From Candidatus Muiribacterium halophilum (lineage in GTDB: Bacteria; Muiribacteriota; Muiribacteriia; Muiribacteriales; Muiribacteriaceae), in the NCBI GenBank assembly GCA_023228995.1, contig JALOAD010000034.1, forward strand, positions 1 to 35,752: a DNA stretch of 35,752 bases, given 5' to 3'. The notes beneath the pieces are model-generated. The model was not told the origin of the DNA. It saw nothing but the letters and a program-made list of their open reading frames with translations, and searched no databases. A program made the translations under genes and the position numbers. Shown piece after piece: positions 9,933 to 34,878 of the stretch (its first letter is position 1; every line of letters starts with the position of its first letter).

Positions 9933-10094
9933 ATGAAAGGAAAATGGACTTGGGCAAGCGATAAAGAACATATCAATATTAATACAGGTGTTGGTACTAT
10001 AAAATTTACAAAATCAGATTTTGATAAAATTCAATCAGAACTTTTAAAAAAACAACGAGAAAAGAAAATAAAAAGAATACTCAATGAAGAATAA
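9933..10094 (+). CDS. small protein, member of the C-terminal KL[EK]RIL-tail family (tail KKIKRILNEE)
   Basis: ATG at 9933 is in frame with track ORF 9885..10094, whose GTG start lies inside the terminator. The stop overlaps the next gene's ATG. Confidence 0.5.
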   Translation: MKGKWTWASDKEHININTGVGTIKFTKSDFDKIQSELLKKQREKKIKRILNEE

Positions 10095-10866
10095 AATTTA
10101 TAATGAAGATAATATCAAAACTATGGAGAAAATACCTGACAACCATTGTCATGGTATTATCACAACACCACCATATAACTTAGGTCGAAACCCAAACCAC
10201 AGAAGAAAAGATCAAGAAGATTACAACTTATATGCTGATAATGTTGATAACCTAACAGAAGAAGAATATTTAGAGGTTAGAACAACCGAATTTAAGGAGT
10301 TTCAGAGAATAGTTAAAGATGATGGTGTCATACTATATAATATGTCATACTCAAAAGAAAATCCAATGCTACCATTACTTCTTATGAACAAAATACACAA
10401 TGAAACTGACCTCACAGTAGCCGATGTTATCACCTGGAAAAAGAATAAGGCAAATCCATTCCAAACCTCTCCAAATAAACTTACAAGAATATCAGAACTC
10501 ATATATGTAATTGTTAATAAAAAACATTTACATACGTTCAAAGCTAATAAGGAAATATCTAAAATAAACGAAAAAACAAAACAAAAGTTCTATAAGAATT
10601 ATACTAATCTAATTGAAGCAAGAAATAATGATGGTATTAAATCTAAAAACAAAGCCACATTTTCAATAGATTTAGTTGAACAACTAATACACATTTACTT
10701 TCCACCAAAATCAATAATTTATGATCCATTCATGGGTATTGGTACAACTGCTAAAGGTTGATTGTCTAAAGATTGTTATTTTCTTGGTAGTGAATTGATA
10801 AAAGAATTTTATGAAGAATCAAAAACAAATATAAAAGATTATGTCGGACTGTTGCGCAAATCCTAA
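10084..10866 (+). pseudogene. DNA methyltransferase, beta-class N6/N4, with an in-frame TGA at 10759-10761
   Basis: Motif IV is ITTPPYN and motif I is DPFMGIGTTAKG. The TGA follows, and the same frame continues LSKDCYFLGSELIKEFYEE..., which matches the ...YIGVELDENYF region of the 6015 paralog. The stop aligns with Ser/Cys in the paralogs. Either a nonsense mutation or readthrough would explain it. Confidence 0.6.
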
Positions 10867-11059
10867 TATAAAGAAGAAAAAGAAACCAACATATTTAGAA
10901 AGAATTATGTTAAAAATTATAGCAATTTTTATTGTTGTCGGAATACTTATTTTTGCTGGTTTCTTCTGGGTAACATTATTAATTGCTGCCGCACTATTTT
11001 TTATAGTGTTTTTTGGTTATTATTTCATAGGTAAATTAAAGAAAAGAAGAAAACGATGA
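10841..11059 (+). CDS. small two-TM membrane protein with polybasic C-terminus
   Basis: Track ORF. The alternative start is the ATG at 10907 (MLKIIAIF...). The C-terminus is KLKKRRKR. It looks holin-like, but the context does not support that call. Confidence 0.45.
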   Translation: MSDCCANPNIKKKKKPTYLERIMLKIIAIFIVVGILIFAGFFWVTLLIAAALFFIVFFGYYFIGKLKKRRKR

Positions 11060-11427
11060 AAAAGAAATGTAGAGTATTTACAACTTGTTTAGGTTGGTCT
11101 GAAGTAATGTTTATTTTTGATGAAGAAACAAAATTTTCTGAAATAAAGAATAAACCACAAACACATATGTTAACCAGAGATGATTATGTTGGTACATATG
11201 AATTTGATAAGAAATTTATACAATTATTTAATAGATCGAAGATAGGCGATAAATATTACTTCTATCGTTTCAGTTATCATAAAGATGATAAACCACAAGA
11301 AGAACAACAATGGATTAAAATTCCTGAGTTTGTTCCAAAAGAGGAACCTAAACAACAAGAATATACAAGCGTTAAAAAAGAAGAAGGTCAATCAAACGCA
11401 GAAGACTTTCAATCATTATTTGATTAA
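11056..11427 (+). CDS. hypothetical protein
   Basis: 123-aa track ORF. Confidence 0.5.
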   Translation: MKKKCRVFTTCLGWSEVMFIFDEETKFSEIKNKPQTHMLTRDDYVGTYEFDKKFIQLFNRSKIGDKYYFYRFSYHKDDKPQEEQQWIKIPEFVPKEEPKQQEYTSVKKEEGQSNAEDFQSLFD

Positions 11428-11428
11428 T

Positions 11429-11749
11429 ATGTGTAAAGTAGTACATTTCAAGAAAGATGATTATGATGTTTATATAGGTAGGTTACCTGGTGGTGAGTTT
11501 AATAAATGGGCTTATCCTAAAGATTTGAGAGACACATTCCCAGAAGGAACACCAAGACAAGAAATCATAGATGCTTATGAAGATTATTTGTTATCAAATA
11601 AAAAACTCATGCAGGATCTACATGAGTTGAAGTATAAAACATTAGGTTGTTGGTGTAAACCTAAATCTTGTCACGGTGATATTCTTAAAAAATATGTTGA
11701 TAAGTTAGAAAGAATAGATGAAAGAAAAAATCTTGTTAATACAGACTAA
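11429..11749 (+). CDS. DUF4326-family protein
   Basis: ATG at 11429 is in frame with track ORF 11285..11749. GCWCKPKSCHGDIL matches the CWC-x-P-x-x-CHGD signature that I recall for DUF4326. Confidence 0.55.
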   Translation: MCKVVHFKKDDYDVYIGRLPGGEFNKWAYPKDLRDTFPEGTPRQEIIDAYEDYLLSNKKLMQDLHELKYKTLGCWCKPKSCHGDILKKYVDKLERIDERKNLVNTD

Positions 11750-12206
11750 CATTAAACAATTCCTCACCAATAGATGCAATGATTTCATGTCTAGGATAAT
11801 CAAGAGAAACAGTCAAATCCAATAAATCAGAAATAAAGTTATATATATTGTCATCATCTTCTAACGAACCTTCTGAAAAAATACCTTCACTATCTGATAA
11901 ATGTTTCTTTGCAAGTTCCAAAAAATCATTAAATTTTATATCATCACATATTTGATCAAATATCGAATCAGGTATTCCCATATTATCAAAAAGGTTAATG
12001 AAATCATCATAATAATCTTTAGTGAACTTTTCGTCATCACTTAGTTTCACAAATTCACTTTTATCTATCAATTGTTTCCTATAATTTGCATCAAATATAT
12101 TTGGTCTACTTCCAGCCTGTTTCTTATTATTTTCTCTTTTACGTCTTTTTTGTTCTATCCTTTCTTCAGGTGTTAAAAATGACTCAAACGTTTTCAATAT
12201 TTTCAT
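11736..12206 (-). CDS. acidic hypothetical protein
   Basis: Track ORF. N-terminus is MKILKTFESF. Confidence 0.55.
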   Translation of the reverse strand: MKILKTFESFLTPEERIEQKRRKRENNKKQAGSRPNIFDANYRKQLIDKSEFVKLSDDEKFTKDYYDDFINLFDNMGIPDSIFDQICDDIKFNDFLELAKKHLSDSEGIFSEGSLEDDDNIYNFISDLLDLTVSLDYPRHEIIASIGEELFNVSLY

Positions 12207-12207
12207 T

Positions 12208-12462
12208 TTACATTAATTCTTTTATAAATTCCAGAGTATCTTGCCAACCATCGTATAATCCCCAATGTTCTTCTAAACAAGATGTGAGTTTCTTGGCTTT
12301 TTCTTCTTTTGATAATGAACTATCATTAACAATTTCATCATATTGTTCATCAAAGAAATCTTCACCATCATAAAAATCAAAACCAAAATCATACAGGAAA
12401 CTTTTTAGTTTTGATAAAGTTTCATCTATTTCGTAATTTTCATATGTTTGTAAATACTTCAT
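12208..12462 (-). CDS. acidic hypothetical protein
   Basis: Track ORF. N-terminus is MKYLQTYENY. Confidence 0.5.
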   Translation of the reverse strand: MKYLQTYENYEIDETLSKLKSFLYDFGFDFYDGEDFFDEQYDEIVNDSSLSKEEKAKKLTSCLEEHWGLYDGWQDTLEFIKELM

Positions 12463-12640
12463 TATGATGGGTTTTCAAGTCTTTTTCTTCTTTCAGCTCT
12501 CTTATCAGCCATTCTTCAATAGGATCTGTCGTTTTCGCTTCAATTCTATTATCTATAAATGATGTCAATCCTAATCCGCCAATCGTTAAAACTGTAACAA
12601 CACCAACACCAATTAATATTTTTTTAAGTATATCATTCAT
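12440..12640 (-). CDS. small membrane-anchored protein
   Basis: Track ORF. TM segment is ILIGVGVVTVLTIGGLGL. Confidence 0.45.
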   Translation of the reverse strand: MNDILKKILIGVGVVTVLTIGGLGLTSFIDNRIEAKTTDPIEEWLIRELKEEKDLKTHHNEVFTNI

Positions 12641-13455
12641 TACTCTTCTAATCTAATTTCATAGTCTCCTAATCTCGAATTATCACTATATTCATCATTC
12701 CACCAAGTTGATACATACCATCCATCAATGTCTTGTTGTTCGAAACCTTCACCCCAACCATCAGAACATTGTCCTTCAAGATAATCTTTAATTAGTTCTA
12801 TTTCTTCATCAGTAATGTCAGGCTTAACCATAACTTCTACCCAGAATCTACTTTCATCATCAAAATTATTACCAACCATTTGCATTGATGTTGCACCTAC
12901 TTCTTCTGCTTCATCGAAATATTGGATAAGATCTTCTTTATTAAAATCTTCTTGCATTTCATCATAAATAATTTTCATTTCTCTCTTATCTAAAGCATCA
13001 GCAATTTTTTCTTTGATTTGGAAGCTATCTGCGAATTTACCCCAACCACCAGCACTAGCTACATAATCATCAAAAAGATCCTCAAAATCTTTTTCCATAA
13101 ATTCTTCATATTCGTTTGTTCTTTCTTCCCATTCCTGATGTTCTGCTTCAAAATCTTCTTCATTATCGAAATCGTCTATTTCTGGTTCATCTTCATCAAA
13201 ATAAGGTGCTTGTCCGTCTTTCCAATCTTCAAAATCTTGTTCTAACCAATCAGCATCATAACCTTGTCTTGATAATTCCATTTCAATATCTCTAATACTA
13301 CCATACATACTAAAAATACTCTCATCAAGTTCTTTCTGTACATAAGTTGGCACAGATAATTTTATCTTTTTAAGTTCTGTTACTGCTGGTTCTGGAAGAA
13401 GTGATTTTGGTTCTCCACCAACAAATGCTTCATATCTTTTAATCAATTTCATCAT
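12640..13455 (-). CDS. highly acidic, Trp-rich hypothetical protein
   Basis: 271 aa with a very high D/E content. N-terminus is MMKLIKRYEAF. Confidence 0.6.
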   Translation of the reverse strand: MMKLIKRYEAFVGGEPKSLLPEPAVTELKKIKLSVPTYVQKELDESIFSMYGSIRDIEMELSRQGYDADWLEQDFEDWKDGQAPYFDEDEPEIDDFDNEEDFEAEHQEWEERTNEYEEFMEKDFEDLFDDYVASAGGWGKFADSFQIKEKIADALDKREMKIIYDEMQEDFNKEDLIQYFDEAEEVGATSMQMVGNNFDDESRFWVEVMVKPDITDEEIELIKDYLEGQCSDGWGEGFEQQDIDGWYVSTWWNDEYSDNSRLGDYEIRLEE

Positions 13456-13469
13456 ATTTTTATTTTTTT

Positions 13470-13793
13470 TTATAATGTTAATTTATCTTGTAATTCATCA
13501 TTTTCTATTTCACCTTTCAACAAATATGGATCTCCAATCTCTTGAATATAACCTCTACCATCAAAATAATCATCATTAATTTCTTGTAATGTTGATTCGT
13601 CTCTACATTCAATCTCAAAATCAGTAGAATATGTACCAATTGTTGGAGTACTGTAGATACTTATGTTTGGATAATTAGATTGTAGATAATCTATTAATTC
13701 TTCTACTATTTCGTTTAATTCATCCTGACTATATTCAATGTTTTCATAATATCTGTTCCAAGTATTAAATTGTTTCCAGTTTTTTACTTTCAT
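13470..13793 (-). CDS. hypothetical protein
   Basis: 107-aa track ORF. Confidence 0.5.
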   Translation of the reverse strand: MKVKNWKQFNTWNRYYENIEYSQDELNEIVEELIDYLQSNYPNISIYSTPTIGTYSTDFEIECRDESTLQEINDDYFDGRGYIQEIGDPYLLKGEIENDELQDKLTL

Positions 13794-13828
13794 TACATTA
13801 TTATTATTATTTTTGTTGTTTTTATATA

Positions 13829-14866: not shown

Positions 14867-14867
14867 A

Positions 14868-15530: not shown

Positions 15531-15626
15531 TTCAGTTAGATGTTTATTTGATAATATATATTAAAAACAAAAACTATAATTGAAAGTATAAACATGTGTT
15601 ATGTTTTTTTATAAAGTAAAAATACG

Positions 15627-18401: not shown

Positions 18402-18662
18402 TTGTATTTAATATTCCCGTTCTTGAAATTTCACTACTTTCATAAATGGGAATACGATTATATACAAAGTAAATGTAAATTACCTGATAGAAACACATAT
18501 ATTGACATACCTCTTAATATTAGAACTTGTAAAGTTTGTGGTATAAAACAAAGACAGATAGCTTTGGGTGATAAATGGAGAGATGTAAGTCCAGACTTTG
18601 GGTTAGATCCAAAATCAATATTAAGAAAGAAAAAATTAGAAAGGATTCTAAATGAAAGCTGA
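18402..18662 (+). CDS. Zn-ribbon-like small protein, KLERIL-tail family (tail KKKLERILNES)
   Basis: Track ORF. Cysteine pattern is CKLP...CKVCG. Confidence 0.55.
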   Translation: MYLIFPFLKFHYFHKWEYDYIQSKCKLPDRNTYIDIPLNIRTCKVCGIKQRQIALGDKWRDVSPDFGLDPKSILRKKKLERILNES

Positions 18663-19545: not shown

Positions 19546-20163
19546 ATGTTAGTAAGAGTAAAAAATAAAGCATATGGTTTATCAAGTAAATTAAGTAAAG
19601 AACCTGCTTACTCTGTTTATAGAGAAGACGAACAACATTACTATGTTCGTAACAATGATGGTATGATCGAAGGTTTTATGAAACAATCTTTTACTAAAAC
19701 TTCAAAAAGAGAAGAAAGAGAATTGAAATTGAAAAGAATTCTTCGTGAATGTGATGCAGTAAAAGAAACAAAAGAATTCTCTGATTATGATATAGATAAC
19801 GCTAAAATTAAAGTAGAATGGTCTGGTTCTTATCCAAACTTGTGTTCAGGTGAATGGACTATAAGAATCAACGAAATGGTTATACCGATACCTGAAGAAA
19901 GAATAGGTGGTTCAATGGGAACGAGTGGTGAATACTCAAGATGGTATTTTGGTGAAAATTACGAAGAACACACAGAACATTATTATGATGGTGATGACTC
20001 TGAATGGTCAAACGATGACAATTGGTTAAAGTATGCTATTTGGTGTTTATCAGAATATCATTCTCTTAGATTTATTGGTGACTTAGACAGACTATATGAT
20101 AGAATTTACAACGAAATATCTGAGAACGATTGGAGAAGTGGTTCTTGTGGAGGTTGTATATAA
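19546..20163 (+). CDS. hypothetical protein
   Basis: 205-aa track ORF. Confidence 0.55.
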   Translation: MLVRVKNKAYGLSSKLSKEPAYSVYREDEQHYYVRNNDGMIEGFMKQSFTKTSKREERELKLKRILRECDAVKETKEFSDYDIDNAKIKVEWSGSYPNLCSGEWTIRINEMVIPIPEERIGGSMGTSGEYSRWYFGENYEEHTEHYYDGDDSEWSNDDNWLKYAIWCLSEYHSLRFIGDLDRLYDRIYNEISENDWRSGSCGGCI

Positions 20164-21255: not shown

Positions 21256-21263
21256 TATATTTG
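21256..21263 (+). promoter_or_regulatory. -7 promoter element TATATTTG
   Basis: Upstream of the gene at 21298. That gene also carries an AGGAGG Shine-Dalgarno at 21287-21292, which is unusual here. Confidence 0.45.
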
Positions 21264-21297
21264 TATTATTAACCATAAAAAATAATAGGAGGTTATT

Positions 21298-21663: not shown

Positions 21664-21908
21664 TGGAAAATAGTTGGATAAGAAGAACTTTAAGAGAGAA
21701 TGGTTTTGTGACCTTTAAGAATTATGTGATGAGAAGAAATGGTGATTCTGCACACATTGGAACAGTACCAGGTGATAGATGGGCAGTTACATTATTTGTA
21801 AACAGAAAATCACAAGGCAATTTTTATACAGAAGAACAATTGAAAGAATATTTCAAGAACGAATTAAGAGAAAAGAAATTAAAAAGAATAATTAAAAAAC
21901 AAAAATAA
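21657..21908 (+). CDS. KLERIL-tail family member (tail LREKKLKRIIKKQK)
   Basis: Track ORF, preceded by a GGGAGGTGAT SD-like sequence. Confidence 0.55.
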   Translation: MLMENSWIRRTLRENGFVTFKNYVMRRNGDSAHIGTVPGDRWAVTLFVNRKSQGNFYTEEQLKEYFKNELREKKLKRIIKKQK

Positions 21909-22058: not shown

Positions 22059-22392
22059 TCAAGTAAAAAATCCTTATTGGAAAAATCCATATAAACCATA
22101 TGTTAGAATACTAACTTGGGCTTGGATGATTATCTGTTTTGGAACTTTAGGAATACATTTGTACCTATATCCAAATGATGCGAATACACCATTTATGGTA
22201 GTAAATATCTTATTGTGGTGGGGTGGTATTCAATATCTTCGTTGGTTTAAGAAAAATAGATATGATAAGTGGTTTATTGAAAATGAAAACACTAAATATA
22301 TTTCTGAAGAAGAACTAATGCAACTAGAACGACAAAAGAAACTGGAACGCATTATAAATGAAGAAGAAAAAGAAAAAATTTCTTTCTTTTAG
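22048..22392 (+). CDS. two-TM membrane protein, KLERIL-tail family (internal QKKLERIINEEE)
   Basis: ATG at 22048 is in frame with track ORF 22033..22392, whose own start is a TTG. The KLERI codons here (ctg/cgc/att/ata) are synonymous variants of those in other members. Confidence 0.55.
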   Translation: MKDNQVKNPYWKNPYKPYVRILTWAWMIICFGTLGIHLYLYPNDANTPFMVVNILLWWGGIQYLRWFKKNRYDKWFIENENTKYISEEELMQLERQKKLERIINEEEKEKISFF

Positions 22393-22680: not shown

Positions 22681-22688
22681 TATATTTG
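22681..22688 (+). promoter_or_regulatory. -7 promoter element TATATTTG, 4 nt upstream of the ATG at 22693
   Basis: Exact motif. Confidence 0.5.
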
Positions 22689-22692: not shown

Positions 22693-23046
22693 ATGCGAGA
22701 TAAAAGAGTATTTATAAAATATGAAAATATTAGACAAACTTATTGGCTAAATGAACATGGCTGGCGTTTATGGAAACATAAATGGTTACCATATGAATTA
22801 GACAGTCACTATTGGTGGGTTGATAGTGTTTCGTTACTTTGGAATTATTATGATGAAGAAATGGATTATACAGGTAGAAGATATGTTGGTGAAGGTCCGA
22901 GATATGATTTAACCAACAAATCAACATTTTATGATAAAGTAAATAATGTAACATTATGTTTTGAGGATTTTGAGCCAATACAAAAATACGAAAGAAGAAA
23001 AAAATTAGAAAGGATCTTGAAAGATGAAGATAGTAAAGAGACTTAG
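22693..23046 (+). CDS. KLERIL-tail family member (tail RRKKLERILKDEDSKET)
   Basis: ATG at 22693 is in frame with track ORF 22570..23046. The region upstream of 22693 holds a terminator and a promoter, so the longer ORF is unlikely. Confidence 0.55.
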   Translation: MRDKRVFIKYENIRQTYWLNEHGWRLWKHKWLPYELDSHYWWVDSVSLLWNYYDEEMDYTGRRYVGEGPRYDLTNKSTFYDKVNNVTLCFEDFEPIQKYERRKKLERILKDEDSKET

Positions 23047-23350
23047 AAGAAATAAAAAAACTTATAAATATATCAAAATTTACTTTGAGTATGATGGTAA
23101 TAAGTATTGTAAAGAAATAAAGGAAGATTTTATAACTAAAACAAAGAAAGTTACTTGGAAAACTCAAATAGTTGTAAAAAGATATTATAGCGAAACTCAT
23201 AAGAAAAAAGAATATGAATATAAAGAGTATAAAGAGATACCAACTAATGTAATGAGTAGATTACAAAATTTTTCAGAAAAGTTTGATAAAGCATATGAAC
23301 TTTATAAGTTTAATTTAAGAGAAAAGAAACTAAAAAGAATAACAAAATGA
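23024..23350 (+). CDS. KLERIL-tail family member (tail LREKKLKRITK)
   Basis: Track ORF with an ATGA overlap to the next gene. Confidence 0.55.
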   Translation: MKIVKRLRRNKKTYKYIKIYFEYDGNKYCKEIKEDFITKTKKVTWKTQIVVKRYYSETHKKKEYEYKEYKEIPTNVMSRLQNFSEKFDKAYELYKFNLREKKLKRITK

Positions 23351-23979
23351 ATATAAAAGGTGTAAAAGTAAGAAAATCAACTGCTCTCGGCTTCAGAATG
23401 GCTATCGAAGGTGATAAAAACCTTAGAGGTGATCAAGTCGAAAGTAACTATGTTTCATTTGTAAAAATAAAAGATTGTCCCATTGTAGTTAAAGATGGAA
23501 AAGAATTTTATGATCCTAAATCAGAGGACGCTAAATCTATTCCAGTAACTCACGGTGGGACTTTTTATGCTTATGGTAAACCTAAACTAAAATTAAATCA
23601 GAAAAGACATGTCGGTGTTGAATATGGTTGGGATAAAAAGAAATATGGTGATTTAGCAGGATCTTACATTGTTGATAACAATTGGATTGAAACACCTTTC
23701 TATGCAGTTAAAGATGCTCAAGTTTATGTTGGTAATACTAAAAGGGCTATCGCACCAGCAGAATTGAAAAGAATACAAAGAGAAAAGAAAATTAAAAGAA
23801 TATTATATTCTGAAAACCAATGTGGTAAAGGTGGTCGTTATCCTACTAAGGAAAATCTTCTTTTAGCATTAATGGCTAATCCGAAAGATTATGGTCTACA
23901 ATTAGAAAACATGTATAATGAATTTATACAAAACGAAACAAGAGAAAATAAACTTAAAAGAATTCTAAAAGATGACTAA
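23347..23979 (+). CDS. KLERIL-tail family member with two copies of the motif (internal REKKIKRIL and terminal ENKLKRILKDD)
   Basis: Track ORF. The motif occurs at residues ~139-147 and at the C-terminus. Confidence 0.6.
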   Translation: MNIKGVKVRKSTALGFRMAIEGDKNLRGDQVESNYVSFVKIKDCPIVVKDGKEFYDPKSEDAKSIPVTHGGTFYAYGKPKLKLNQKRHVGVEYGWDKKKYGDLAGSYIVDNNWIETPFYAVKDAQVYVGNTKRAIAPAELKRIQREKKIKRILYSENQCGKGGRYPTKENLLLALMANPKDYGLQLENMYNEFIQNETRENKLKRILKDD

Positions 23980-24457
23980 AGACGACTATACAAGACGAGA
24001 AGAAGAAAGAATTAAAACTCTAACTTGGGGTTCAGTTCCAAGATGTTCTATGGAACATGAGACTGAATATGTTTGGTATAAAGACGAAATTGCTTGGACT
24101 TATGACTTCCATGATGGTAGAATTGAAATCAGTAGAATACAAATGACAGGCGAAAGATGGATGACTGAATGGAAAACTGGGAACAAACCAATTTATCAAT
24201 ATAAAATATTAGAACACACTAATGGAAAATTTATGGGCAATTATGGCATAACTCACAGTGATAGTTCAGAGATATTTGAAGATTTACAAGGTCTAAAAGA
24301 ATATATCTTTTCCAGACAAGAAAGGTATATTGAAAGACAAATGGAATACCTTAATGTAACCTTGAAAGAAAATAAAGAAATGATTTTAGAATTTACTAAA
24401 CAATTTGATGGCAACAGACCAGAAAAATTAGAAAGAATATTGAAAGATGAAAACTAA
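23972..24457 (+). CDS. KLERIL-tail family member (tail EKLERILKDEN)
   Basis: Track ORF. Confidence 0.55.
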   Translation: MTKDDYTRREEERIKTLTWGSVPRCSMEHETEYVWYKDEIAWTYDFHDGRIEISRIQMTGERWMTEWKTGNKPIYQYKILEHTNGKFMGNYGITHSDSSEIFEDLQGLKEYIFSRQERYIERQMEYLNVTLKENKEMILEFTKQFDGNRPEKLERILKDEN

Positions 24458-24725
24458 CTTATGTAGAATGATGGATAGACTGAAGAAGGTTGGTGTTGAT
24501 TTAGAATTAGCAGGTAATTATCCTTGGGTCTATATAAATAAAATAAACGGCAAATATGTAAAAGAAAATTTCCAATCAGACCACGGATTTGTTCTTTGTT
24601 TTTCACCAAAAACAACAAATGGTGATTATAGTTTTGCCTATGGTTTTACAGATGCCTTTAATTTAATAAGAAAATACACAAAAGAAAGACAACATAAATT
24701 AGAAAGGATATTGAAAGATGATTAA
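24447..24725 (+). CDS. KLERIL-tail family member (tail HKLERILKDD)
   Basis: Track ORF. Confidence 0.55.
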   Translation: MKTNLCRMMDRLKKVGVDLELAGNYPWVYINKINGKYVKENFQSDHGFVLCFSPKTTNGDYSFAYGFTDAFNLIRKYTKERQHKLERILKDD

Positions 24726-25002
24726 TGGATATAGTTTAGAATATGATGATAGAGTAAAAATAGAAGATAGATTATTAGAATATCTTCATAAAAATCCTGA
24801 AACAGTCATAGAGAATCTGAAAAATTCTTTTATGAATGTTCCTGATTACTCTATAGTTAGAGTCGAAAATGTTTATTTAGAACGAGATAATCTATATGAA
24901 TGTCACGTTAAATGGCATAAAGATTTAATGTGTGCTATATCCGTTTTACCTATACCCGAAGGATTTTTAAGACAAATGAAATTAGAAAGGATATTAAAAT
25001 AA
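24718..25002 (+). CDS. KLERIL-tail family member (tail QMKLERILK)
   Basis: Track ORF. Confidence 0.55.
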   Translation: MINGYSLEYDDRVKIEDRLLEYLHKNPETVIENLKNSFMNVPDYSIVRVENVYLERDNLYECHVKWHKDLMCAISVLPIPEGFLRQMKLERILK

Positions 25003-25322
25003 TGGAAAAGAAAGTAGGTTATAATTATTTAGTCAGACACAATGATAAAATTCTTGAAATAAAGATACATAGATTAACTAAAAAAGAATATGCTTTAGTT
25101 GAAATATTTTCACCAGACCTAAAAACATCTGAAATGAAATGGATGGGTAGGTTTGATTTATTAACAGATAGTAGCTATGCCAATGATAAAAGATATACTA
25201 TTGTTGAAGAATTGGATCCAAAAGATCCTTATTACAGACAACGTAAATTAGAAAGAATTCTTAAATTGGCTGATGAAGAGAAATTAGAAAAATTGTTGAA
25301 CTTATTAGAAGAAACAAAATAA
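25002..25322 (+). CDS. KLERIL-tail family member (internal RQRKLERILKLADEEKLEKLL)
   Basis: ATG at 25002 overlaps the preceding TAA as TAATG. It is in frame with track ORF 24930..25322. Confidence 0.5.
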   Translation: MEKKVGYNYLVRHNDKILEIKIHRLTKKEYALVEIFSPDLKTSEMKWMGRFDLLTDSSYANDKRYTIVEELDPKDPYYRQRKLERILKLADEEKLEKLLNLLEETK

Positions 25323-26179
25323 TGTACTGGGAACCTCAATTACAAATGATGTGTCCACTTTGTAAAACAAATGTGGAAGTTGATAAAGAAGAAGAAACAT
25401 TCAGATATGAAGATGTCTGTGGTTCTACTGTAGGTTCTTGGAAACACATTTGCCCTAATAAAGATTGTATATTACACAAGAAAAAATCATTCTGGAATGA
25501 CCACGGTGATTTTTATTCAGGTGATTTAGGATTTAAGAAAGCAAGAAAATTATTTCCAGATGATAAGTATGCCGCACTAAACTCAATGGCAAAAAGACAT
25601 GAAGTTGAAATTTACGGCAAAGGCTTGAAAAGAAAAATCTATCTTTCTGAATGGTGGACACTAAAAATACTAAAACCTATGATTGAGTTTAAGTATAAAG
25701 GTGATGATATGGGTAATGTTCTTGGTAGAACTTGGAAACTCAGATGGTTATATAAGTCTGGTAATCAAGATTACTATGGAACATATTACACATCACCAAT
25801 TGTTCATTTATACCGTATGCTTAAACATACAAGAAGAGATATTAAAAGATATAAAAAACGAAAATCTCTATACGATTTACAAGAAATATGGAGATGGTTT
25901 GATATGGGTGTTAAAACTGGCTGGGATAGAAAACTTTATAGGTGGTATTTCAATACATTCCATAAGAAAATATTAAATTATTCTAAAAATTTTGTTGATT
26001 TTATAGAACATGTTAGAAGAAATAAACACAACATAGATGAAAATTTTGTGAGATTTTGGGACGGTAAGTTACCTTATGATTTTTCTGTTAATGATTACTT
26101 ACTCAAAGAGAAATGTAAAGGTTCTTATATGGACAATTTAATAAGACAAAGAAAATTAGAAAGAATTATAAATGACTGA
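25322..26179 (+). CDS. Zn-ribbon N-terminus protein, KLERIL-tail family (tail RQRKLERIIND)
   Basis: 285-aa track ORF. N-terminal cysteine pattern is CPLCKTN...CGST...ICPNKDC. Confidence 0.6.
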   Translation: MYWEPQLQMMCPLCKTNVEVDKEEETFRYEDVCGSTVGSWKHICPNKDCILHKKKSFWNDHGDFYSGDLGFKKARKLFPDDKYAALNSMAKRHEVEIYGKGLKRKIYLSEWWTLKILKPMIEFKYKGDDMGNVLGRTWKLRWLYKSGNQDYYGTYYTSPIVHLYRMLKHTRRDIKRYKKRKSLYDLQEIWRWFDMGVKTGWDRKLYRWYFNTFHKKILNYSKNFVDFIEHVRRNKHNIDENFVRFWDGKLPYDFSVNDYLLKEKCKGSYMDNLIRQRKLERIIND

Positions 26180-26588: not shown

Positions 26589-26592
26589 ACTG

Positions 26593-26600: not shown

Positions 26601-26640
26601 CAAAAAAAAATAAACTCAACAGAATTTATCTTTATTGTAA

Positions 26641-26703
26641 AAAGAAATTGAAAGAAATACAAATTGAAGAACGAGAAGATAAACTAAAAAGAATATGTGG
26701 TTA
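26641..26703 (+). pseudogene. vestigial 3' end of a KLERIL-tail family gene (encodes ...EEREDKLKRICG*)
   Basis: The frame is open only from the stop at 26638. It has no ATG, but it encodes the family tail and overlaps the next gene's ATG (26695) exactly as intact members do. Confidence 0.5.
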
Positions 26704-26910
26704 AAATGTACATACACAGATTTCTACCAAAACAACTTGAAAATAACAAAAGGTAAGTATTACAAAGTTATATCGAAAGATAAGACAGAAAATAATTTAT
26801 ATTGGATAGTTGATGATAATGGAGAAACTCATAGATACTCTATTGATTTCTTCAAGGTAGTTGATAAAAACGAAATTAGAGAAAAGAAACTTAAAAGAAT
26901 TATAAAATGA
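26695..26910 (+). CDS. KLERIL-tail family member (tail IREKKLKRIIK)
   Basis: Track ORF. Confidence 0.55.
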   Translation: MWLKCTYTDFYQNNLKITKGKYYKVISKDKTENNLYWIVDDNGETHRYSIDFFKVVDKNEIREKKLKRIIK

Positions 26911-27353
26911 AAAAGAAAGTAACTTATTATTCACCTGGTACTTTTGTAGCAGAAATGACACAAAGAGAAATTCGTGGTAAAGATAAAGAAGAAATCATAA
27001 GAAATGCAACCATTGAAGGACAAAAAATTATAGAGAGATATAATGCTACACCTTATGGTTTCAGAATAGAAGGAGAAAGTATCACATACTATCTACCACA
27101 CACAAGAATTGAATTACTAAAAGAAATCAAGGATAGAAATGATCCTAAGGATAGAATATTGATTTCTAATATGGAATGCAATAATTGGAATGCCGTTGTT
27201 GTTACAACTGAAGGTTGGAAAACCACACAACCATTAGATGAAGAAGATTGTATTGTTGATGCTTTTGGTAACATAATCCTTAGAGGATTTGAGGCTGATA
27301 TTAATATTGTTAGAGAAAGAAAGTTAGAAAGAATATTGAAAAATGCAGATTAG
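26907..27353 (+). CDS. KLERIL-tail family member (tail VRERKLERILKNAD)
   Basis: Track ORF. Confidence 0.55.
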   Translation: MKKKVTYYSPGTFVAEMTQREIRGKDKEEIIRNATIEGQKIIERYNATPYGFRIEGESITYYLPHTRIELLKEIKDRNDPKDRILISNMECNNWNAVVVTTEGWKTTQPLDEEDCIVDAFGNIILRGFEADINIVRERKLERILKNAD

Positions 27354-27624
27354 AAACTATCTCATAAAAACTGATAATCCTAGAAAAGTAATGGATTATC
27401 TTAAATCAATTAATGAACCCATCTATAAAAACTGGTACAAGTATATTTCTATTCTCAATGATCTTCAAGACAGTAACCAAATATTAATCGGTTATTTAGA
27501 TGATGAAGATCAAGAATGGGATTGGGATGGAGATAGTTACTGGTATAAAACATACCCAAACAGAATAGTTATTTCTTTTAATGAATTATTAAGAGAAGAA
27601 AAATTAAAAAGAATATTGAAATGA
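27343..27624 (+). CDS. KLERIL-tail family member (tail LREEKLKRILK)
   Basis: Track ORF. Confidence 0.55.
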   Translation: MQIRNYLIKTDNPRKVMDYLKSINEPIYKNWYKYISILNDLQDSNQILIGYLDDEDQEWDWDGDSYWYKTYPNRIVISFNELLREEKLKRILK

Positions 27625-28049
27625 ATAGTTGGTTTGAAAATGAATACGATGAAGATGCATATTTTAAAAATCATATGCAATGGTTAGACCATATGAGACA
27701 AATCGAAAAGAAACCTGACGAGAATGGTAAAGTTGTTTTGACAAATTTTGACAACGATAAAATAGAAATTTATAGAAAATCTATAAAACTCTATGAAAGT
27801 GTTGATTATGAAAAAAGTCAAGAATGTCAATTTGAGATAAAAGAAAATGTCGCACATGACGTTTATGGTAAAACTATAAACAAAGAAGATGATCCTTCTC
27901 ATTCATCTTTATGGCATAAACCTGGTGGTAAATTTGGTGCTGACAGAGGTGATTTTTGGCAAGTTTATGATGAAGTGTTAGCTAAATATGAAAAAGATTA
28001 TTTAAGACAAGAAAAACTCAAAAGAATTTTATTTGATAAAAATAATTAG
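27621..28049 (+). CDS. KLERIL-tail family member (tail LRQEKLKRILFDKNN)
   Basis: Track ORF. Confidence 0.55.
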   Translation: MNSWFENEYDEDAYFKNHMQWLDHMRQIEKKPDENGKVVLTNFDNDKIEIYRKSIKLYESVDYEKSQECQFEIKENVAHDVYGKTINKEDDPSHSSLWHKPGGKFGADRGDFWQVYDEVLAKYEKDYLRQEKLKRILFDKNN

Positions 28050-30758: not shown

Positions 30759-30784
30759 TATATATTAAAATTAAAAGACCAAAA

Positions 30785-31594: not shown

Positions 31595-31602
31595 TATATT
31601 TG
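31595..31602 (+). promoter_or_regulatory. -7 promoter element TATATTTG
   Basis: 26 nt upstream of the ATG at 31629. Confidence 0.45.
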
Positions 31603-31628: not shown

Positions 31629-31814
31629 ATGGCAAAAGAAACAAAATTAGATAAGGTATTAAAAAAGAGAACAATAGACGTAAAAGAAATGAAAAAACTT
31701 TGTAATTATGGTACAGCATATCATAATTATTGGTTTAAAATGAAGAAATTAGAAAGAATTCTTATGGAAGAATTTGAAGACGATTTTGATTTTGAAACAG
31801 AAAACGCAGAATAA
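31629..31814 (+). CDS. KLERIL-tail family member (internal MKKLERILMEE, acidic end)
   Basis: Track ORF. Confidence 0.5.
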   Translation: MAKETKLDKVLKKRTIDVKEMKKLCNYGTAYHNYWFKMKKLERILMEEFEDDFDFETENAE

Positions 31815-31816
31815 TT

Positions 31817-32062
31817 ATGGTAGCAATAATATCTATTATAGCCGTATGTTTAATGATGGTGTACCTAGTGTACTCCGTCATTAAAATGCGAGATAGAACA
31901 GACAAAGTAAGAAATGTAAGAAAGTATATGTGCTATTCTTTAATAGCATTGTGTTTACTTGTATCTTTTGGTTATGTTATTAGTGGAAATGGTGGTAGTG
32001 CATCTATTTGGGCATTCAATTCTGCTCTTTGGGGATTTAATTTATATATGGTTCTTAAATAA
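31817..32062 (+). CDS. small two-TM membrane protein
   Basis: 81-aa track ORF. Confidence 0.5.
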   Translation: MVAIISIIAVCLMMVYLVYSVIKMRDRTDKVRNVRKYMCYSLIALCLLVSFGYVISGNGGSASIWAFNSALWGFNLYMVLK

Positions 32063-32235
32063 TGATGAAAACAATCATAATTTATAACGGTGAAAAATTA
32101 GATCCTGAACAAGAGTGGGTGCTCGAAAATAATGAATTAGGTTATATCATTTTAGCCAAAAACAATGAAAATTTTTGGGCTATGTGGATGATGAATGCAT
32201 CTGCTACAACCACTAACGTACAAGTGTATGGGTAG
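32062..32235 (+). CDS. possible small ORF (57 aa)
   Basis: TAATG overlap with the previous gene. It is below the track cutoff. Confidence 0.3.
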   Translation: MMKTIIIYNGEKLDPEQEWVLENNELGYIILAKNNENFWAMWMMNASATTTNVQVYG

Positions 32236-32270
32236 TTTTTACCCGATTTAATAAACTAAAATTTAAAATA

Positions 32271-32531
32271 ATGGAAGCAAAAGAAATTTACCTAAAGATT
32301 AAAAGAGAAATAACCAAAGGATTATACGCTTATGATGACCAAATAGCTGCAATTGCTAAATGGGTAGAAAGCGAATTTGAACCGAAAAAACAAGGGAAAA
32401 AATTACCTATACACAATGTTAGCAATAACGAAGTGGCGTTAAAGGCGTTTGTTGAAGAGTTCGTTGAGGCTTGGGAAGATGGAATGGGTGGAGATACTGA
32501 TTTATATAGAAAAGCTAAAAGCCTTTTATGA
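32271..32531 (+). CDS. hypothetical protein
   Basis: 86-aa track ORF. Confidence 0.5.
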   Translation: MEAKEIYLKIKREITKGLYAYDDQIAAIAKWVESEFEPKKQGKKLPIHNVSNNEVALKAFVEEFVEAWEDGMGGDTDLYRKAKSLL

Positions 32532-32794
32532 TTGCTAACACAGAAATTGACGAATATACTATGTATTGTAATGTTACAGAAATACATAACAAATATTTGT
32601 CATTCCACACTAGACAAGGTAATCAAATTGCATTTGAGAGTAATATACACGGTACTGGCTCAACACCTAATATGCAACAATTTGATGAAATATACATATA
32701 TGATGCAGATACAAAATTTGATTCATACTATGGAAGTAAGAAAAGAGTTGCACAATTTATAAGAAGACTTAAATTAGAAAGAATATTGAAATGA
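32528..32794 (+). CDS. KLERIL-tail family member (tail IRRLKLERILK)
   Basis: Track ORF. Confidence 0.55.
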   Translation: MIANTEIDEYTMYCNVTEIHNKYLSFHTRQGNQIAFESNIHGTGSTPNMQQFDEIYIYDADTKFDSYYGSKKRVAQFIRRLKLERILK

Positions 32795-33207
32795 AAAAAT
32801 TAAACTGTTGGTTTGGAAAACACGATTGGGACACTTTCAAACACATCACAAAATCAAAACCACCACATTATGAAAGATGTTGTAAAGTTTGCAATAAAGT
32901 ACAAATAATGAGCGAATTAGAACATAAAAAATTGTTAGATAATGGTGTAATAGAAATTAACAAATGCTTTAATGGTATTTTTAGAGTTATTGATATTAGA
33001 TTAGAAAAAGGACACTATCAGCATATCTATGAAGATTTGGAAGATGTTATTGAAACGCTAACAAATGTTAAGAAAAACTACACAACTGAACACTTTATAA
33101 AAGTTAAAGATAATATACTTGATAGTATAGATTATTTATATAGAGGTGATAAACATTTCATCTCAACGAGAATGGAAGAATATTTTAAAACAATTGAAAA
33201 TTTATAA
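32791..33207 (+). CDS. hypothetical protein with N-terminal Zn-ribbon-like CWFGKH...CCKVCNK
   Basis: Track ORF. It has no family tail. Confidence 0.5.
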   Translation: MKKLNCWFGKHDWDTFKHITKSKPPHYERCCKVCNKVQIMSELEHKKLLDNGVIEINKCFNGIFRVIDIRLEKGHYQHIYEDLEDVIETLTNVKKNYTTEHFIKVKDNILDSIDYLYRGDKHFISTRMEEYFKTIENL

Positions 33208-33212
33208 AAAAA

Positions 33213-33695
33213 ATGGAACCAATTAAACAAGCAAACAGACCATATACTCAAATGCCTGGTTATGGATTGTATGATTTTACAGACTTCGTTCCAACTGATG
33301 AAGAAGTCTTAATCAATATGTTAGAATATATGAGTTATTGGGGAACTCATTGGATGTTCGATTATATGCCAAAAACAAGATTTTGTGACCTAATGGAATT
33401 ATATCTAAATGATTGGAGACCAGAAGGTTATGCTAGACAATATAAACACATTTTAGTTGAAAAATCTAAAAGAAAGAATGGTGGGAGTGAATATAAAGGT
33501 CCTGCACCATTGCATTGGATAGAAAGAACTTGGGAATTTCAAAGTAGAGATATGACAGATGAAGAAGTATTGGTAGAGCCAAATTATTGGTATCAAGGTG
33601 TACTTGAATGGTGTAAGAAGAATCCTGAAGGTATGAGAATGTTAGGAGAATTAAAATTAGATAGAATACTCGATGAAAATAAAATTAATGAATAA
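33213..33695 (+). CDS. KLERIL-tail family member (divergent tail ELKLDRILDENKINE)
   Basis: Track ORF. Confidence 0.55.
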   Translation: MEPIKQANRPYTQMPGYGLYDFTDFVPTDEEVLINMLEYMSYWGTHWMFDYMPKTRFCDLMELYLNDWRPEGYARQYKHILVEKSKRKNGGSEYKGPAPLHWIERTWEFQSRDMTDEEVLVEPNYWYQGVLEWCKKNPEGMRMLGELKLDRILDENKINE

Positions 33696-33912
33696 GTTGC
33701 AAGTTTATTGTACTTGGAATTTTAAGGTAGGTGAAGAATATCATTTGGAATATGATCCTGAAATAGAATACTTTTCAGTTTTTGATCATAATGGTGTAGA
33801 AAGACTATCAATGACAAGTAAAAGTCTAATGAAATACTTTGATGAAAAATCTTGCAAACAACTAATGAGAGAACAAAAACTCAAACGAATATGTAAAGAT
33901 GAAGATTGTTAA
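33673..33912 (+). CDS. KLERIL-tail family member (tail REQKLKRICKDEDC)
   Basis: Track ORF. The alternative start is the ATG at 33688. Confidence 0.5.
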   Translation: MKIKLMNKLQVYCTWNFKVGEEYHLEYDPEIEYFSVFDHNGVERLSMTSKSLMKYFDEKSCKQLMREQKLKRICKDEDC

Positions 33913-34186
33913 ACACGTAGATCATTCCGATAAAAGAAAAAGATTAGTTTCTACTGAGAAAGCATATACTACCGTTAATTATAACGATATTATATTTCTT
34001 AGAGTCGAAACAGATTACGGTGAAGATGCACCTTCAGATTATTATTGGAATATTGGTAGAGGCGAAAACAATTGGTTACTTTGTAATGATGAAGAAAACT
34101 TAGCATTAGAAAAACTATATCAAATAGAATTAGAAAGATTAGAAAGAGAAAACAAATTAAAACGAATATTAAATGAGAAAGATTAG
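33899..34186 (+). CDS. KLERIL-tail family member (tail RENKLKRILNEKD)
   Basis: Track ORF. Confidence 0.55.
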   Translation: MKIVKHVDHSDKRKRLVSTEKAYTTVNYNDIIFLRVETDYGEDAPSDYYWNIGRGENNWLLCNDEENLALEKLYQIELERLERENKLKRILNEKD

Positions 34187-34436
34187 AATTAAACATTACG
34201 AAACAATTAATGTAATTAGACAAAAAGAAGCATTAGAAATTGAAATACCTGATGATTTAGACTTAGAAGATGAAGATGCACTGGAAGATTATATAACTAT
34301 GTGGTATGAAAATGAAGACAATTTTGATACTATTTGTGATTTAGATTGGGATGGTAATGATCAATGGTCAGACCCAACGGAATTAGGTTTCCACATCGAA
34401 ACTGATGACGAAGATTATGGATTTATTCGAGTATAA
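34173..34436 (+). CDS. acidic hypothetical protein
   Basis: Track ORF. It has no family tail. Confidence 0.5.
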   Translation: MRKIRIKHYETINVIRQKEALEIEIPDDLDLEDEDALEDYITMWYENEDNFDTICDLDWDGNDQWSDPTELGFHIETDDEDYGFIRV

Positions 34437-34878
34437 ACATTTACATTGGGATACAAACCTAAAAAATATGTGGTATATTTATGTTCTTAATTGTTCAGAT
34501 GATACATACTATTGTGGTATAACAAACAATTTCCACAAAAGAATGGACGATCATAATAGTGGAAAAGGTGCAAAATACACCCGTGGAAGAACACCTGTTA
34601 AACCAGTGTATTGGACTGTTGTTGGAACAAAATCTGAAGCACTTAAATTAGAATATAAGATAAAACAATATTCTCGAAAACAAAAAGAAAAATTAATAAA
34701 ATATCGTGTATTTCCTGAGTATATATTCAACTATAAAGGAAATTTATACTACATGAAAGGTGATATTCTATATATCTGGGGAGCAATAGAGGGAGAGGAC
34801 GACTGGTTAGAGTTGCAATCCGAAGAAATGAAACAAATATATCATAGAAGTAAAAAATTAAAAAGAATTTTAGAATGA
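34405..34878 (+). CDS. GIY-YIG nuclease domain protein carrying the KLERIL family tail (HRSKKLKRILE)
   Basis: WYIYVLNCSDDTYYCGITNNFHKRMDDHNSGKGAKYTRGRTPVKPVYW fits the GIY-YIG (Slx1/UPF0213-like) pattern. A possible later start is the ATG at 34468. Confidence 0.65.
   Translation: MTKIMDLFEYKHLHWDTNLKNMWYIYVLNCSDDTYYCGITNNFHKRMDDHNSGKGAKYTRGRTPVKPVYWTVVGTKSEALKLEYKIKQYSRKQKEKLIKYRVFPEYIFNYKGNLYYMKGDILYIWGAIEGEDDWLELQSEEMKQIYHRSKKLKRILE

Follow-up and report, generated by a model that had tools for sequence, protein, structure and literature searches.

Why do many small and mutually dissimilar proteins encoded within a single stretch of DNA end in the same short peptide? The question is posed by a contig of 35,752 bp and 29% GC (JALOAD010000034.1; hereafter the window, by which we mean the whole stretch analyzed) whose gene content is that of a phage accessory region. 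An earlier reading of its letters, referred to here as the original prediction, had noticed a C-terminal tail shared by otherwise unrelated small open reading frames (ORFs) and had taken it for a common signal on a varied repertoire, which is still the simplest reading. We find that the tail is real, that it is specific to one phage clade and that purifying selection keeps it as a peptide. The interpretation that we prefer, and to which we give roughly an even chance, is that it serves a hypervariable, probably early accessory repertoire as a C-terminal helix for docking or addressing in trans, with coding DNA that doubles as the initiation region of the next gene.

Searching the six-frame translation of the window with the pattern K[LIVM][EKD]R[IV] (residues are numbered from the conserved Lys as position 0; Arg at −3 was not required) returns 26 matches, every one in a plus-strand coding frame; 24 of these lie 2–20 residues before a stop codon and two are internal. 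In Markov-1 simulations of the window, matches average 1.44 and never exceed 6, residue shuffling inside the called proteins gives 0.35 matches against 22 observed, and the placement of 24 of 26 matches within the last 25 residues has a binomial P of 4e-16, such that both the shared tail and its predicted C-terminal bias stand far above chance. At the DNA level, the degenerate pattern AGA-N6-AAAYTNRAAAGRATHYT matches 12 times in the window and not once in 100 shuffles. An artefact of low complexity or AT composition is ruled out by the shuffles together with the tail-free state of sister phages of equal or lower GC; recoded stop codons were also set aside, as all three stops end tails (for most of the TGA stops read, another in-frame stop lies 1–5 codons further on). 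The matches are given below, with hyphens around the five-residue core and with the offset of the next ATG counted in nucleotides from the Lys codon.

10056..10082, plus strand: tail QREK-KIKRI-LNEE-stop; gene 9933-10094 (53 aa); next ATG 10084 (+19)
11693..11719, plus strand: weak tail KYVD-KLERI-DERKNLVNTD-stop; DUF4326 protein 11285-11749; no Arg −3; convergent next gene; doubtful member
18624..18650, plus strand: tail LRKK-KLERI-LNES-stop; gene 18402-18662; next ATG 18652 (+19)
19717..19743, plus strand: internal copy EREL-KLKRI-LRE; residues ~58–66 of the 205-aa protein 19546-20163
21867..21893, plus strand: tail LREK-KLKRI-IKKQK-stop; gene 21657-21908; next gene begins 9 nt past the stop
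22330..22356, plus strand: tail ERQK-KLERI-INEEEKEKISFF-stop; gene 22048-22392, last of its transcription unit, then a 300-nt gap
22993..23019, plus strand: tail ERRK-KLERI-LKDEDSKET-stop; gene 22693-23046; next ATG 23024 (+22), 23-nt overlap
23318..23344, plus strand: tail LREK-KLKRI-TK-stop; gene 23024-23350; ATGA junction
23779..23805, plus strand: internal copy QREK-KIKRI-LYS; inside gene 23347-23979
23941..23967, plus strand: tail TREN-KLKRI-LKDD-stop; gene 23347-23979; next ATG +22
24416..24442, plus strand: tail NRPE-KLERI-LKDEN-stop; gene 23972-24457; next ATG +22
24687..24713, plus strand: tail ERQH-KLERI-LKDD-stop; gene 24447-24725; next ATG +22; codons GAA AGG A Shine-Dalgarno-like
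24970..24996, plus strand: tail LRQM-KLERI-LK-stop; gene 24718-25002; TAATG junction
25236..25262, plus strand: tail YRQR-KLERI-LK with a 20-residue acidic extension; gene 25002-25322
26144..26170, plus strand: tail IRQR-KLERI-IND-stop; gene 25322-26179 (285 aa, P0001 family); operon-final; next gene convergent
26672..26698, plus strand: remnant tail ERED-KLKRI-CG-stop; 45-codon TTG mini-ORF 26567-26704, directly upstream of ATG 26695
26878..26904, plus strand: tail IREK-KLKRI-IK-stop; gene 26695-26910; ATGA junction
27312..27338, plus strand: tail VRER-KLERI-LKNAD-stop; gene 26907-27353; next ATG +22
27592..27618, plus strand: tail LREE-KLKRI-LK-stop; gene 27343-27624; ATGA junction
28005..28031, plus strand: tail LRQE-KLKRI-LFDKNN-stop; gene 27621-28049; operon-final, then a TATATTTG box at 28050
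31737..31763, plus strand: tail FKMK-KLERI-LMEE with an acidic extension; gene 31629-31814; Lys for Arg at −3
32762..32788, plus strand: tail IRRL-KLERI-LK-stop; gene 32528-32794; ATGA junction
33645..33671, plus strand: tail LGEL-KLDRI-LDENKINE-stop; gene 33213-33695; Gly at −3; next ATG +19
33868..33894, plus strand: tail MREQ-KLKRI-CKDEDC-stop; gene 33673-33912; next ATG +22; L007 orthologue also tailed
34145..34171, plus strand: tail EREN-KLKRI-LNEKD-stop; gene 33899-34186; next ATG +19
34846..34872, plus strand: tail HRSK-KLKRI-LE-stop; GIY-YIG protein 34405-34878; ATGA junction

The coordinates and peptides of the original prediction hold up, three minor points aside. ATG 22693 is indeed the start of the gene listed there, as opposed to the longer ORF from a GTG at 22570; the 11702 tail lacks Arg −3 and counts as weak; and the 26681 tail belongs to a TTG mini-ORF of 45 codons, probably what is left of a disrupted gene. 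The core of the tail reads [LI]-R-[EQK]-x-K-L-[EK]-R-I-[LIC], within a total length of about 12–16 residues and with an aromatic residue common near −8. Arg −3, Lys 0, Leu 1, Arg 3, and Ile 4 are near-invariant (Arg −3 in 21 of the 24 tails of the window and, clade-wide, in 76 of the 81 unique ones), whereas the distance from Ile 4 to the stop ranges from 2 to 20 residues. Position −4 is [LI] in 48% of tails and −2 is Glu in 51%, and a minority (about 30%, estimated by eye from position counts) reads [LI]-R-E directly before the core.

The proteins that carry this tail (53 to 285 aa; one body is a GIY-YIG domain, and that of gene 22048-22392 has hydrophobic stretches which by eye resemble two transmembrane segments) share nothing else that we could detect. 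An all-vs-all blastp comparison of the bodies yields nothing below E = 0.09, hhalign over 276 family pairs reaches a best probability of 11%, and Pfam, PHROGs, NCBIfam and PADLOC contain neither a family common to the bodies nor a known domain covering the tail, in agreement with the earlier claim that the bodies are unrelated. Diverged paralogues, with the tail as their last homology, were rejected for want of blastp or hhalign support at this sequence and profile level of comparison. The motif is likewise absent from the literature searched, by peptide string or by concept, and from the family libraries; the original prediction had also known of no described phage system of this kind.

Several lines of comparison locate the selection on the peptide. 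Across 66 unique tails, the invariant residues are encoded with the codon frequencies of the genome (Arg as AGA, AGG, CGA, CGT, or CGC; Leu as TTA or CTN; Ile as ATT or ATA), bearing out the proposal that selection acts on the peptide and not on a DNA site. In 48 orthologue pairs, non-synonymous codon differences amount to 29% in the tail 10-mer versus 50% in the body, and synonymous differences to 16% in the tail versus 15% in the body; orthologues whose bodies are 32–86% identical keep the tail. Nearly all of 32 multi-member families are uniformly tail-bearing or uniformly tail-less, the few mixed ones containing truncated or degenerate tails (RERKLSRILS, RKRKFENILKN). Non-orthologous tails agree at synonymous codons as often within a genome as between genomes (identity 0.647 versus 0.636), and exact matches between window tails are at most 21 nt long with a median of 9 nt; this equality and the shortness of the shared stretches leave no sign of gene conversion among tails.

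A 27-nt position weight matrix recovers no copies in other frames, on the opposite strand or in control loci, where a fixed nucleotide string would have betrayed a DNA-level repeat; its extra matches are in-frame internal or N-terminal copies, an orphan in a 5′ leader of the related contig L014 (contigs other than the window are given by L numbers) and a tail on a short ORF in L018. The downstream ATG occurs in five registers (+14, +19, +20, +22, +23) and hence in different frames, while the register to the upstream frame is constant. Codon usage, the weight-matrix scan and the multiple ATG registers rule out a DNA or RNA repeat, and the five registers, the invariant upstream frame, the near-background codons, and the lack of out-of-frame copies led us to reject an RNA-level initiation or reinitiation element, whether Shine-Dalgarno (SD)-like, A-rich or resembling a termination upstream ribosome-binding site (TURBS).

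Scanning related phages and metagenomes restricts the tail to one clade. Roughly 100 tails are found in related metagenomic contigs, at some 2–14 per 10 kb in those with a 43–58% identical orthologue of P0001 (the 285-aa family listed above), and P0001 orthologues keep IRERKL[EK]RI down to 41% identity. Contigs L011, L012, L021, and L028, equally AT-rich and more distant relatives, have no tails, nor does the huge phage LR756500 (24% GC), and distant P0001 homologues in the sister clade have a different C-terminus without the tail. Degenerate pattern scans of genome and viral collections returned, among the matches listed, mostly single chance matches, but these also include additional clade members, namely L135, L143, L223, and L255; L161, which has two tails, may be another. 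A tblastn search with P0001 against GenBank phages and a search for the exact junction string in IMG/VR gave no match. The C-terminus of the denV-like protein (RDREILLQRIKEK, 28062-28424) was considered as a tail and rejected as native to its own family, because the LR756500 homologue has the same C-terminus. Separately, a conserved family encoded between two radical SAM genes (L004 4008-4478; L007 838-1278 and 1281-1682) has a tail-like REKKLKRVFNYD near its N-terminus and has no member in the window.

Comparison of the window with L004 reveals a common backbone (metallophosphoesterase, radical SAM, 21918-like gene, 25002-like gene, and P0001) between the members of which the two carry different tail-bearing genes. 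Because the anchor genes are shared and the tail genes between them differ, the tail operons behave as hypervariable islands. Some copies of the tail are displaced from a C-terminus: the 150-aa L016 orthologue of gene 23347-23979 ends exactly at the internal tail of the window protein, identifying the latter as a fusion which retains its now-internal tail, and the internal copy at 19717..19743 is likely a fossil C-terminus from gene fusion as well. At 26172-26704, a 16-codon 5′ stump (ATG 26172) and an intact 3′ tail (26672-26698, before ATG 26695) flank a gene of the opposite strand that appears to have disrupted a former tail gene.

26325-26588, minus strand: disrupting gene, 87 aa, GC-richer, with its own TAATTTTG box

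In L014, positions 2776-2830 hold an orphan tail-coding copy (AGA GAA AAG AAA TTA GAA AGG ATT) within a divergent promoter region/5′ leader that has no upstream ORF, and a second partial copy in another frame spans ATG 2804.

The tail-coding DNA runs directly into the next gene. For 17 window tails the next ATG lies +14 to +23 nt from the Lys codon, and the apparent end of the motif ([KN]-[DE], or K before the stop), previously counted as part of the peptide signal, is actually this overlapping ATG read in the upstream frame (AAT GAA, AAA GAT GAx, AAA TGA); Cys +5 of the RIC variants similarly reflects ATA TGT, which holds the ATG at +14. The usual stop/ATG overlap claimed earlier holds in spirit, but true ATGA and TAATG junctions are a minority and most overlaps are of 8–23 nt. 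Most intergenic gene starts in the window are without an SD sequence; the tail-coding region is A-rich, an SD-like GAA-AGG-A occurs in 4 window tails, and a minor RNA-level contribution of the region is plausible. Two canonical SD sequences, a type otherwise largely absent from the window, stand at taggaggttatt-ATG (21280-21297) and ggggaggtgat-ATG (21640-21656), the former preceding gene 21298-21663, whose 121-aa product is a fragment with homology to the 285-aa radical SAM proteins that related phages encode; their presence suggests recent acquisition or a special regulatory case. MKIVK N-termini recur on unrelated proteins after KDED-type junctions (window 23024-23038 and 33899-33913; L014 5528), such that nucleotide similarity reaches a few codons past the common start codon.

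We used AlphaFold2 to model the P0001 family, the one family so treated, and its tail comes out as a confident helix (residues 268–284, predicted local distance difference test scores of 82–90); a fold search with this model returned nothing significant. Read from the consensus, the conserved residues cover over half of the helix circumference, the conserved face mixing basic (Arg −3, Lys 0, Arg 3) and hydrophobic (Leu −4, Leu 1, Ile 4, Leu 5) side chains, with a mean net charge of about +3. Its hydrophobic moment (0.27–0.40) and mean hydrophobicity (0.08–0.15) are too low for a membrane-targeting amphipathic helix of the MinD/FtsA type (0.55–0.61 and 0.40–0.41 for those sequences), an assignment against which the five near-invariant residues also speak. 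A degron read through its free carboxyl end (ssrA or MuA type for ClpX, or Tsp) is excluded because the distance to the C-terminus varies over 2–20 residues, and internal copies exist; recognition of the helix internally by a protease adaptor may occur. A profile search of the PDB gave only chance-level matches to c-Jun and VP1, and a basic leucine zipper (bZIP) origin was rejected since the c-Jun match (RKRKLERI) spans only 9–11 residues at E~1 and the tail is too short.

The window contains two promoter-like boxes that bear on function. The first, TATATTTG, is enriched (17 matches versus 5.9 expected), with eight directly upstream of operon-first genes, and matches TAnnTTTG, the Bacteroidota −7 promoter element.

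2848, plus strand: TATATTTG box
15627, plus strand: TATATTTG box
16784, plus strand: TATATTTG box
21256..21263, plus strand: TATATTTG box before operon 21298-22392, resembling the Bacteroidota −7 element
22681..22688, plus strand: TATATTTG box 4 nt ahead of ATG 22693; heads the nine-gene operon 22693-26179, all genes tailed
28050, plus strand: TATATTTG box
29290, plus strand: TATATTTG box
30751, plus strand: TATATTTG box
31595..31602, plus strand: TATATTTG box before operon 31629-35237+, with tails on 6 of 12 genes

At 15627, 22681, and 28050 the box ends 4 nt before an ATG, which suggests leaderless or near-leaderless mRNAs. Terminator-like hairpins lie mainly at unit ends (21198, 31544), and none is at a tail. 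The second box, TTAATATATA, is distinct from TATATTTG and also enriched (6 matches versus 0.9 expected).

1126-1135, plus strand: TTAATATATA box
2731-2740, minus strand: TTAATATATA box
13823-13832, minus strand: TTAATATATA box
15555-15564, minus strand: TTAATATATA box
22411-22420, plus strand: TTAATATATA box
30759-30768, minus strand: TTAATATATA box

This box, which may be read by the phage sigma factor (9220-9861), sits upstream of gene 1141-1755, the LAGLIDADG gene and several genes whose products begin like the T4 capsid-targeting sequence (CTS). Such CTS-like N-termini (MKILKTFESF, MKYLQTYENYEIDE, MMKLIKRYEAF, MIIRFNEYLRE, MILRFNEHILE, MRTLKTYNEINE; resembling MKTYQEFIAE) occur on six or seven otherwise different proteins encoded on the minus strand at 11736-15530 and 1998-2705, one being a nucleotide-cyclase domain protein (14868-15530), and four of them have at residues 9–14 an (L/I)-x-E site, the consensus of the prohead protease. 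By analogy they are candidate capsid-internal, injected proteins; in this lineage, a separate and probably late class of genes seems to carry a T4-like N-terminal tag already, and diverse proteins sharing only a terminal tag are an established strategy there. A further case is seen in L011 (IMGVR_UViG_3300022890_000011), a contig of a sister clade and free of KLERI tails, where five ORFs end in NKMGL[LIY]-stop.

9591-9959, plus strand: L011 ORF ending NKMGL[LIY]
13201-13524, minus strand: L011 ORF ending NKMGL[LIY]
13606-13638, minus strand: L011 ORF ending NKMGL[LIY]
16326-16703, minus strand: L011 ORF ending NKMGL[LIY]
18667-19206, minus strand: L011 ORF ending NKMGL[LIY]

Three of the five start with MKYLKTFEN, MKYLKTYNEN, or MKNYNNFINES and one is a leucine-rich-repeat protein; NKMGL[LIY] is a third shared motif, C-terminal like the tail but different from it, and is here combined with a CTS-like N-terminus.

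How might the KLERI tail act? In the docking-helix interpretation it would be a portable C-terminal α-helical short linear motif, attached to many unrelated, fast-turning-over small accessory proteins. It would work in trans, once these proteins are complete, by serving them all as a docking or address tag. A single putative partner, be it nucleic acid, a hub protein of host or phage, or else a protease or unfoldase, would be contacted through the invariant face (Arg −3, Lys 0, Leu 1, Arg 3, Ile 4), and this binding would confer a common location, timing or fate on the hypervariable repertoire. The tail DNA would have a second, subordinate job for the next cistron, providing it with an A-rich, largely SD-less initiation region and often with the opening bases of its start codon. 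Helix formation by tails generally, action in trans, the single partner and early operon expression are what we infer here. A more specific proposal, which we advance tentatively and hold to be more probably wrong than right, has the C-terminal basic helix (R-x-x-K-L-x-R-I-L) route a host-takeover or anti-defence repertoire to one receptor or compartment, in parallel to the CTS-like tag.

Several observations weigh against docking in trans. The single shared partner remains putative, and many co-expressed proteins would compete for one docking site. The Arg 3 codon is mildly biased (AGG 11 versus 4.5 expected, CGT 0 versus 6.3, P = 2e-4), which is compatible with weak SD-like or purine selection, and the L014 orphan and the remnant upstream of 26695 hint at some usefulness of the junction in its own right, as DNA or RNA. 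Overlap with a downstream start is found for 35 of 60 tail genes versus 36 of 167 others (odds ratio 5.1, P = 5e-7), and the ATG is confined to +14 to +23 while the tail gene's own stop ranges more loosely from +21 to +75. The link of tails with translational coupling is thus real, though not obligatory.

This link is the strength of an explanation in cis, in which the nascent tail or its A-rich mRNA slows or conditions the terminating ribosome for reinitiation at the overlapping ATG; in one variant, the tail peptide may act inside the ribosome to enable termination–reinitiation on SD-blind Bacteroidota ribosomes. A device of this kind would account for the overlap enrichment, for an ATG 14–23 nt past the Lys codon wherever the stop falls and for tail-only mini-ORFs or orphans directly upstream of starts (L014 2776, window 26681), a nascent-peptide effect would equally conserve amino acids, and the setting is apt: most intergenic starts are SD-less, the boxes are Bacteroidota-like, and Bacteroidia ribosomes ignore SD sequences in favor of A-rich initiation regions (PMC6847099). 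It sits poorly with tails on the operon-final genes of three tail-rich units (22048-22392, 25322-26179, 27621-28049) and upstream of convergent genes in two phages (in both the window and L007, P0001 retains its tail although the gene that follows is convergent), with gaps of >15 nt after about 20% of tail genes (12 of 60), with internal (post-fusion) and N-terminal copies, and with tail-less genes of the same operons that also overlap their neighbors (e.g., 21918/22048, 32271/32528, 34173/34405). In known arrest peptides the distance to the peptidyl-transferase center is fixed, unlike that of a motif 2–20 residues from its stop, and the five ATG registers do not consistently meet the preference for A at −3, −6, −12, and −13 measured in Flavobacterium johnsoniae (PMC6847099). 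Because tails are retained by the last genes of operons and by genes followed by a convergent one, they do not exist mainly for coupling; the tight ATG placement can be ascribed to a constrained peptide that ends at about +6 with the next start set immediately after, and the wandering stop to an upstream frame that runs on to the next chance stop, neither needing a coupling function. The earlier suggestion of a peptide coupling termination to reinitiation is accordingly not favored, and we judge a cis device unlikely. Similarly unlikely, to our minds, is a junction module for cassette shuffling, that is, a recombination linker (the coding counterpart of the promoter-early stem-loops, PeSLs, of T4) with the peptide as a tolerated by-product. 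The common backbone of the window and L004 with differing tail genes between, remnant and orphan tails at rearrangement points, one fusion plus frameshifted tails, and the similarity that crosses the ATG into MKIVK after KDED-type junctions all suit such a linker, for which PeSLs give a precedent as repeated boundary elements of phage hyperplastic regions (PMC2839356). A pure DNA linker does not predict tail substitutions that are overwhelmingly synonymous or conservative, however, nor is there homogenization within genomes, the exact matches are short for homologous recombination, and synonymous sites look saturated; since these sites are free, recombination is at most a side-effect, despite the likeness to T4 PeSL boundary shuffling.

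A generic structural appendage, be it a solubility, stability or self-association helix or a nucleic-acid-binding basic helix with no shared partner, would be in keeping with the confident P0001 helix, continuous with a helical domain, with hydrophobic residues on two helix sides (from the consensus) that could pack on each body, with the net charge and with the chance-level likeness to the c-Jun basic-region/zipper junction; we nonetheless think it quite improbable, as five near-invariant residues over ~100 tails on unrelated folds exceed the needs of solubility or helicity, packing on differing folds would not conserve one face, the motif is too short for a bZIP domain, and a self-association tag on co-expressed proteins would produce promiscuous heteromers. 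Packaging or ejection targeting, raised in the original prediction, would make the tail a C-terminal analogue of the T4 CTS or of encapsulin targeting peptides that loads proteins into the capsid for co-injection. The logic is that of T4 internal proteins and encapsulin cargo (PMC3012670, PMC7925596), the tail is basic as T4 internal proteins are described to be, highly so (PMC8442874), and the [LI]-R-E of about 30% of tails (by eye) resembles the prohead-protease site. That feature is absent from most tails, though, and the tail operons follow host-type-like TATATTTG boxes; the separate minus-strand CTS-like set behind TTAATATATA is the better capsid-cargo candidate, and its presence in the same window makes capsid loading less likely for the C-terminal tail. 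We consider that role very improbable. There is no capsid, scaffold or protease gene in the window and no shell or capsid family among the window proteins scanned against Pfam.

Set against known systems, the tail is of the terminal-address-tag kind and a member of no known family. Its nearest precedent is the CTS of T4, MKTYQEFIAE, the only thing that the diverse internal proteins of that phage have in common (PMC3012670, PMC8442874): like the tail, this is a ~10-residue terminal address tag on diverse, fast-evolving phage accessory proteins. The CTS is N-terminal, cleaved by the prohead protease and found on late, virion-packaged proteins, whereas the tail is C-terminal, unrelated in sequence, with a cleavage-site-like [LI]-R-E in only a minority of copies, and encoded in operons behind host-type-like boxes; membership was rejected on position and sequence, the CTS-like N-termini being on other window genes. 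Encapsulin cargo proteins dock to an HK97-fold shell through short C-terminal peptides (PMC7925596). As with the tail, these peptides are borne by otherwise unrelated proteins. Encapsulin targeting peptides are Gly/Ser/Leu-rich and extended; the tail differs in being a basic helix of unrelated sequence (the consensus [LI]RExKL[EK]RIL has no Gly/Ser/Leu core), with no shell gene in context, no shell family in the Pfam-scanned proteins and far more tagged proteins per genome, and was not assigned to this class.

PeSLs are promoter/stem-loop cassettes at the boundaries of small ORFs in T4-type hyperplastic regions (PMC2839356, PMC4122927). They share with the tail the character of a short repeated element bounding unrelated small ORFs and tied to gene gain, loss, and replacement, but are non-coding and conserved as DNA, whereas the tail is always in-frame coding and conserved as peptide, with free synonymous sites, no promoter signature and no hairpin at any tail, and a PeSL-type cassette was rejected on these grounds. 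Hub-docking motifs (clamp-binding QL[SD]LF, the PIP box, the SSB C-terminal tail) and the oomycete RxLR motif bring unrelated proteins to a single hub or route by means of one short terminal motif; the tail follows the same general logic without sequence similarity and is restricted to one phage clade. Calicivirus TURBS and prokaryotic ATGA coupling also place a conserved element just upstream of a stop/start overlap, TURBS acting through RNA pairing with rRNA, whereas the tail is conserved as amino acids, tolerates several ATG registers and persists without a downstream cistron.

Were the address-tag interpretation correct, the tail would mark, from sequence alone, the full set of proteins sent to a common destination by one phage lineage. 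In the window this set makes up roughly 30% of genes, and all or nearly all genes in two operons. It would offer a handle for finding the receptor and for sorting the lineage's ORFan "dark matter" into functional classes, as well as a portable tag for engineering Bacteroidota phages, as the T4 CTS and encapsulin peptides became. The junctions are also a clean natural case of dual coding: a strongly selected peptide is encoded by the very DNA at which translation of the next gene is initiated, start codon included, in a largely SD-less system.

The remaining gene content of the window includes two N6/N4 DNA methylases, a sigma-70-family factor, a nucleotide cyclase, HNH, LAGLIDADG, and GIY-YIG nucleases, and two metallophosphoesterases; tRNA and Rfam scans of the window were both empty.

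4497-5096: Tad3 homologue (Type I Thoeris inhibitor, anti-Thoeris), Pfam PF25185, E = 1e-25, a clear match
9220-9861: phage sigma factor (sigma-70 family)
28062-28424: denV-like gene, T4 denV-like (pyrimidine-dimer glycosylase) as read from the N-terminus

The lineage is probably an uncultivated jumbo phage, as its relatives include ~100-kb and 61-kb metagenome contigs (CAZCJR010000003.1 and CAZCJR010000005.1, two ~100-kb contigs of one metagenome-assembled genome (MAG) bin; IMGVR_UViG_3300020048_000150, 61 kb), and it probably infects Bacteroidota, a host suggested by the match of the TATATTTG box to the −7 promoter element of that phylum. NCBI places the window contig in a "Candidatus Muirbacterium halophilum" MAG, and two ~100-kb contigs of the same clade (L135, L143) are binned in a "Cellvibrionaceae" MAG; both placements are probably binning artefacts, making bin taxonomy unfit as a host assignment. 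At the nucleotide level, the sole match of the window among GenBank phages is to LR756500.1, an otherwise unrelated 462-kb uncultured phage; relatives are found only in metagenomes. The LR756500.1 match covers 324 bp of the denV-like gene at 80% identity, which, given the unrelatedness of the two phages elsewhere, points to horizontal transfer of this gene between huge phages.

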